DNA of 64,000 nucleotides, taken from assembly GCA_964187785.1 (NCBI GenBank), contig OZ076409.1:50470001-50534000 (forward strand), read 5' to 3'. Every line of letters begins with the position of its first letter. Positions within the stretch are counted from its first letter, which is position 1. Source of the stretch: Amphiscolops sp. MND2022 (taxonomy: Eukaryota). Positions 39,997 through 40,631 of the stretch are shown one piece after another. The position numbers and the translations under genes are program-made. Under the pieces are notes generated by a model that ran no database searches, was not told the DNA's origin, and worked only from the letters and a program-made list of their open reading frames with translations.

Positions 39997-40631
39997 AGTA
40001 GTAAGCGAAAACCCGATTCGGCTCAAGCAAGAAAAAAAATCAAAAACCCCAATCCCCCCATTAGAGGCATTTTTCCAAAAACAAATCAACAAATTGGTGT
40101 TTTTACCAAAGCAATGTAAAAGCAATGTAATATAAACAACTGGCGTGGACATAAATTTGGTTCCAATGGCTCAGTGGTTAGGCCACTGGAATTTTACGTT
40201 CGCGCAGCTTCACACGCGTTCGAGTCCGCAACAAAGCATATTTTAATTTCGCGTAGCTTCGCACCATTAAAGGAGGGGGGTTTATAAGGAAGTTAGTATA
40301 TTATTTTTACTGACAAGTTACTCATTCCTTAAAAGGATTTGTCATCCTTTCCTCCGCTTTCGAGCAGTATTGGCAACAGAAACGTGAGCTATACCAGGAC
40401 ACACTTTCGGGAGGGGAAAAGATTGTGTGTTACTTAAACTGGAGCTCTATAGTGAATTAACTAGTGGGAGGTAAAATCCTGTGTAGTTAATTTGCGAGCA
40501 GTGGACGTCTGTAGCACATGGAATATAGTGTCGGTCGACGGAAGCCGCGTTAAGCTTTTGCGTTAAGCTTTTGTGTTAATCTTTTGCGTTAAGCTTTCGC
40601 GATAAGATAAGTTGCCTAATACCTCAACGGG
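39997..40631 (+). repeat. Left terminal inverted repeat of the Polinton
   Basis: Reverse complement of 54235-54869; roughly 90-95% identical by eye (about 14 differences in the first ~190 bp). Confidence 0.95.
40160..40244 (+). ncRNA. tRNA-derived Pol III cassette inside the left TIR (mirror copy at about 54622-54706 on -)
   Basis: A box TGGCTCAGTGG (40167-40177), B box GTTCGAGTCC (40218-40227), TTTT at 40241-40244; the 5' head resembles tRNA-Gln but there is no complete cloverleaf. Confidence 0.6.

Follow-up and report, generated by a model that had tools for sequence, protein, structure and literature searches.

The Polinton and the module in its terminal repeats

The window analyzed here, a stretch of 64,000 nucleotides from Amphiscolops sp. 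MND2022, contains a Polinton/Maverick element at 39997..54869 (14.9 kb). The element has AGTAGT at its termini and is flanked by a perfect 6-bp target duplication, CCCGGA, at 39991-39996 and 54870-54875. Its left terminal inverted repeat (TIR) spans 635 bp on the forward strand (39997..40631) and is mirrored with ~93% identity by the right TIR on the reverse strand (54235..54869). The genes are broken by stops and frameshifts; Pfam matches to an rve integrase, a double-jelly-roll capsid and an A32 ATPase are weak and score mostly under the curated cut-offs, as expected for fragmented genes, and a PolB fragment resembles a PF03175-positive protein. The AGT-type TIRs, the 6-bp target duplication and the set of integrase, PolB, capsid and ATPase identify the carrier as a Polinton/Maverick. 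The Polinton load of this genome is very large, with 1346 capsid and 1908 PolB candidates at first look and at least 10 distinct families, and some derivatives (L434-L435 and L438-L439) are giant palindromes with arms of 4.7 and 7.5 kb.

Within the left TIR, an A box of the TRGYNNARYGG type, TGGCTCAGTGG, lies on the forward strand at 40167-40177, which is 170 nt away from the terminus (39997); TTAG comes next, as it does in the D loop of a tRNA. The B box, GTTCGAGTCC, lies at 40218-40227 and a T4, the predicted Pol III terminator, at 40241-40244, a position at which T4 or T5 is found in 53/63 subfamily copies. The unit points inward, into the Polinton. Its mirror in the right TIR occupies 54622..54706 on the reverse strand, with the A box at 54699-54689, the B box at 54648-54639 and the T4 at 54625-54622. 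The preliminary description had reported inward-pointing boxes and a T4 near both termini, with an identical B box and a single A-box change between the TIRs, and these claims are confirmed at 40167-40244 and in the right TIR. The change is G10 to A in the right copy and affects a consensus position, so only the left copy satisfies the strict pattern. An A box and a B box spaced 30-60 nt apart, together with a T-run downstream, support the assignment of a Pol III type 2 promoter layout.

The distance from A box to B box, not given in the preliminary description, is 51 nt in the window unit, versus 43-45 nt in most of the outward-facing units described below. The intervening variable spacer (40181..40217, forward strand) includes an additional T4 at 40192-40195, which was missed in the preliminary description and is found in 57/63 subfamily copies. 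This internal T4 could stop Pol III early. Host tRNA genes terminate in T4-T5, and because the host tRNA-Lys itself has an internal T4, read-through of the one in the unit may be possible. The spacer also holds a piece of a 12-nt palindromic motif, which is missing from some natural copies. The motif, which we take to be of the GCGAAGC mini-hairpin type, occurs in the window at 40200-40211, 40250-40262 and 40546-40606 and at many related loci (L135, L149 and L157), and it recurs as an apparent insertion across the window's Polinton group in TIRs, the unit spacer and reading frames. A G-run and a TATA-like box follow the unit at 40264-40280, and further downstream a two-hairpin stretch at 40380-40499, one of nine segments tested, folds better than shuffled sequences (z -3.6).

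The description of the unit as not a functional tRNA holds, and a tRNA gene was rejected for lack of a cloverleaf with acceptor and anticodon stems: ARAGORN found no tRNA in the 64-kb window, nor in 18 integrase-selected Polinton ends, and the Rfam search returned nothing tRNA-like and no RF00005 match. With a lowered threshold, ARAGORN called 10 of 30 outward-unit matches as tRNA. The window unit folds no better than its shuffles (z -0.9). A dispersed tRNA-derived SINE was also rejected, since all 30 fetched best copies of the window unit sit in full TIR context (40 of 145 candidates were scored). The preliminary description had named a genome-wide host SINE with boxes no more conserved than their flanks as the outcome that would overturn its reading; the dispersal part of this fails, and the part concerning box conservation applies within the window's subfamily. 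Likewise, the commonest outward A-box half was tied to element ends in 48 of 56 matches on two contigs, the other eight being unassigned. By chance, 0.017 such units are expected per simulated 64-kb window (300 Markov simulations), and the real host background lies far above the simulated one, at 44 units per 787 kb of fetched DNA, Polinton ends included. Only Lys, Arg, Thr and Val tRNA genes were seen in the host, where tRNA genes are arranged in long tandem arrays; the tRNA-Val gene has an 8-nt stretch in common with the long-spacer copies, which is too small for a tRNA donor to be named. Some of the outward A-box halves presumably resemble Pro, Glu or Gln tRNAs.

Variation in the window's subfamily and its relatives

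To avoid selecting on the boxes, subfamily copies were anchored on a motif upstream of the unit (72 matches), and conservation counts from the first 30 loci were not used because the query had biased them. Of 73 sequences, nine were excluded prior to counting: six in which a microsatellite takes the place of the unit and three that are truncated. When a shared variant is defined as one present in at least four copies, columns with shared variants number 1/21 in the boxes, 9/37 in the spacer and 3/221 in the inner TIR. Variability in the spacer far exceeds that in the inner TIR (p=2e-6), the difference between boxes and spacer is not significant (p=0.08), and conservation of the boxes does not surpass that of the inner TIR (p=0.31), all p-values being rough because the copies are related and the two TIRs of each element were not collapsed. 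Stronger conservation of the boxes than of the rest of the TIR, proposed earlier as a check, is thus not seen in the window's subfamily. The sole common box variant, in the B box of 13/64 copies, remains within GTTCRA. Among 63 scored copies, 56 match the A-box consensus, 59 the B-box consensus and 53 both, and the distance between the boxes ranges from 50 to 65 nt across the subfamily, with the spacer as the variable part. Tandem arrays of TIR-derived units with a period of ~1.3 kb were observed at L176, L177 and L213, in some of which the unit is truncated or replaced by a microsatellite.

Relatives of the element differ in how much of the module they carry. Among 30 TIRs picked by their inner part, 16 have the window-type unit and 14 a different outer part, in which an A-box-like motif is accompanied by a non-consensus B box. 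The latter (L032-L060) are chimeric, the same inner TIR being joined at the T-run to an outer TIR that resembles another subfamily; the inner TIR downstream of the unit is accordingly common to two different outer types. Twenty elements selected by capsid, with ~80% DNA identity to the window's capsid gene, fall into three sets by end type: nine have a related A-box/D-arm unit whose B box is non-consensus or missing, nine gave no A-box match at those ends that were located, and two gave no ends. A form termed type C (L129, L141, L145, L149, L153 and L157) comprises an A box with D-arm, a short stem-loop, a UUCG hairpin and a non-consensus B box, usually at one element end only. Relatives that lack a consensus B box or an A-box match indicate that the full module is not required in the window's group. 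In addition, none of 12 elements from eight other PolB families had the unit, either at the ends (six with both termini located) or inside.

These results give some weight to the view that the unit is a neutral passenger. In that case, tRNA-like modules of host repeats would have been captured near the ends and copied to both TIRs by terminal homogenisation, and recombination at the common B box would have brought in new A-box halves, the element gaining nothing from any of this. Boxes no better kept than their flanks in the window's subfamily, and a unit broken or absent in sister subfamilies and the eight other families, are both consistent with this view, as is the frequency of such modules in host repeats. 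Indeed, several non-Polinton repeat families embed A-box/B-box/T-run modules, some of them 100-180 nt inside the repeat and one before a Helitron-like end; examples lie in the window at 10082 (reverse strand), 13771 (forward strand) and 21423-21463, and elsewhere at L251, L263, L269, L421-L423, L429 and L431. Embedding such modules may be a genome-wide habit of the host's mobile DNA, and their presence in several repeats provides plentiful raw material for chance capture.

Outward-facing units in a second Polinton group

Matches to the A/B pattern outside window-type TIRs proved to terminate in the motif of Polinton ends. This motif is preceded at 60-90 nt by a B box in 434 cases, while a reversed control gave 66, and such matches often form opposed pairs 14-22 kb apart. 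Upstream of the B box, an A box, which was not part of the search pattern, was present in 26/30 fetched matches versus 1/750 control windows; the 26 include one Helitron-like repeat and ~10 cases in which the pattern initially hit a similar sequence further upstream, the A box at tRNA spacing being visible separately. The carriers encode an rve integrase and PolB, with proteins ~28-38% identical to those of the window's group. From 122 integrase matches (92-100% identity), 18 ends were sampled at roughly even steps; the unit was found in 17 of them, 15 intact and two with one B-box change, and the eighteenth stretch held no terminus.

The units of this second group point outward at both ends, and in most of them a T-run located 11-35 nt past the B box closes the unit. 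They occur with several forms of spacer and 3' part and with variation at the free A-box positions, and the two ends of one element can have different A-box halves on a common B box (L255, L257, L261 and L436). An internal T4 is present in 11 of the 44 listed units, whose box profile was forced by the search pattern and is not counted as evidence. No shared fold was found among ten units folded, and some outward units fold strongly, at -30 to -44 kcal/mol. In both Polinton groups, the unit lies 70-230 nt from the terminus. The module therefore has a fixed terminal position in two distant Polinton groups, retains its boxes across varied spacers and occurs in both orientations. L273 and L431 were dropped as a Polinton type owing to a hairpin and CTTGT end of Helitron-like form, and L421-L423 and L432-L433 have the same end motif, yet no Polinton protein match.

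The outward family speaks against a neutral passenger. Its unit is near-universal at a fixed distance, most of the 44 distinct units retain a T-run downstream of the B box, and both ends retain a correctly spaced A box even though the halves differ. Recurrence in two distant groups with swapped spacers suggests more than a single captured relic. A neutral passenger is a stronger possibility in the window's subfamily than in the outward family, and overall we regard it as rather unlikely.

The recurrence of the unit is known from one genome only. A search of viral contigs yielded no confirmed relative, the terminal pattern giving 120 raw matching loci, and 80 metagenome integrase loci (308 kb) contained no unit, these loci being mostly short and perhaps not extending to a terminus.

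Known systems and the possible role of the module

The closest known counterparts are the Helenus, Cassandra and Ajax TRIMs and the Pol III cassettes of foamy-virus LTRs. In the TRIMp3 retrotransposons, of which Helenus is tRNA-derived and Cassandra and Ajax are 5S-derived, small-RNA promoters occupy both LTRs (PMC10886601). The Polinton unit resembles them in that a Pol III promoter descended from the gene of a small RNA sits in both terminal repeats, with boxes conserved and the tRNA fold lost. However, TRIMp3 elements are non-autonomous LTR retroelements of tiny size, in which the Pol III transcript serves as the genome that is copied (PMC10886601), whereas the carrier of the unit is a DNA element of 15-18 kb with TIRs and coding genes. 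Since a T-run follows 11-35 nt after the B box, the RNA of the unit cannot be a transposition intermediate, and membership in TRIMp3 (Helenus), defined by a short LTR element with PBS and PPT and a transcript that covers it from end to end, was rejected. Foamy viruses, which also integrate, likewise carry Pol III units in their terminal repeats, but their cassettes give defined pre-miRNA hairpins shown by sequencing (PMC3993851), whereas the Polinton unit has no conserved hairpin and its RNA is a predicted one. In the open-access literature covered, including passages of PMC8502044, PMC8097293 and PMC10748475, no report of such units in Polinton TIRs was found, and a prior annotation is possible.

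We favor the reading, at somewhat less than an even chance, that the unit is a place on the DNA where host TFIIIC and Pol III dock. Once bound close to either Polinton end, these factors would keep the end open or stop the spread of silencing, acting as a chromatin boundary or an open-chromatin mark, and any 75-105 nt RNA made from the unit would be a likely by-product. The promoter layout and terminal position are kept while RNA sequence, fold and orientation change, and a role at the DNA level fits this pattern best. In fission yeast, the barrier activity of tDNAs is orientation-independent and requires TFIIIC and Pol III (PMC2040200). As in tDNA/TFIIIC barriers (PMC2040200), A and B boxes are located at a domain edge with free orientation; unlike those barriers, which are host genes or sites, the Polinton unit rides on a mobile element and its barrier activity is putative. 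The absence of the unit from many families, the non-consensus B boxes of close relatives, the similar modules in other host repeats and the ordinary conservation of its boxes in the window's subfamily count against a key role.

Alternatively, the unit may encode a small viral RNA of VA-like or TMER-like kind that is functional: abundantly transcribed by Pol III, it would saturate or divert host RNAi and vary in sequence to escape piRNA or siRNA targeting. The complete promoter and terminator, predicted products of 75-105 nt, a spacer hypervariable in both Polinton groups and the strong folds of some outward units are compatible with such an RNA, and the LTRs of foamy viruses do give rise to Pol III miRNA precursors (PMC3993851). 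The lack of a common fold among the ten units, the z score of the window unit and the internal T4, present in 57/63 subfamily copies and 11 of 44 outward units, argue against it. The genes for adenovirus VA RNAs have an internal position, whereas the Polinton unit is terminal, ~85 nt long, weakly folded and variable. VA RNA shares with it an internal box A and box B, a T4 terminator and a related virus lineage, but measures ~160 nt and has three conserved domains, namely a terminal stem, an apical stem and a central GGGU-ACCC domain (PMC7589676). By length, domains, Rfam and fold, the unit does not conform to the structural definition of a VA RNA. Of the earlier proposal of a VA-like transcription unit, the Pol III type 2 module stands; at about half the VA length, with no stable stem and no sequence or fold conserved across units, the VA-like RNA is weakly supported, and we consider a functional small RNA unlikely. 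The putative insulator also suggested in the preliminary description fits better, given that both orientations occur and the spacer varies. It is improbable that Pol III factors near the terminus aid protein-primed replication or integrase access, much as host factors aid adenovirus at its ITR, because young Polinton families lack the unit and the opposite orientations place TFIIIB on opposite sides of it, despite the tight position of 70-230 nt in both groups.

Returning to the docking-site reading, we tentatively propose a broader scenario, possible but on balance doubtful, in which Polintons in Amphiscolops sp. MND2022 have acquired tRNA-type promoters at their ends again and again, as chromatin boundaries that they carry themselves or as small-RNA decoys, swapping the transcribed part rapidly under host pressure. 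To our knowledge, almost nothing is known of cis-elements in Polinton TIRs, and the unit bears on the question of how Polintons stay competent after integration. Its presence in some families and absence from others within one genome offers built-in controls for a candidate site of host factors whose biochemistry is known. The unit also carries the TRIMp3 idea, that terminal repeats can hold captured promoters of small RNAs, over to DNA elements, to which the retrotransposition explanation cannot apply. If true, this scenario would mean that endogenous DNA viruses carry an anti-silencing device acting in cis, and it might serve as a model for the origin of adenoviral VA genes.
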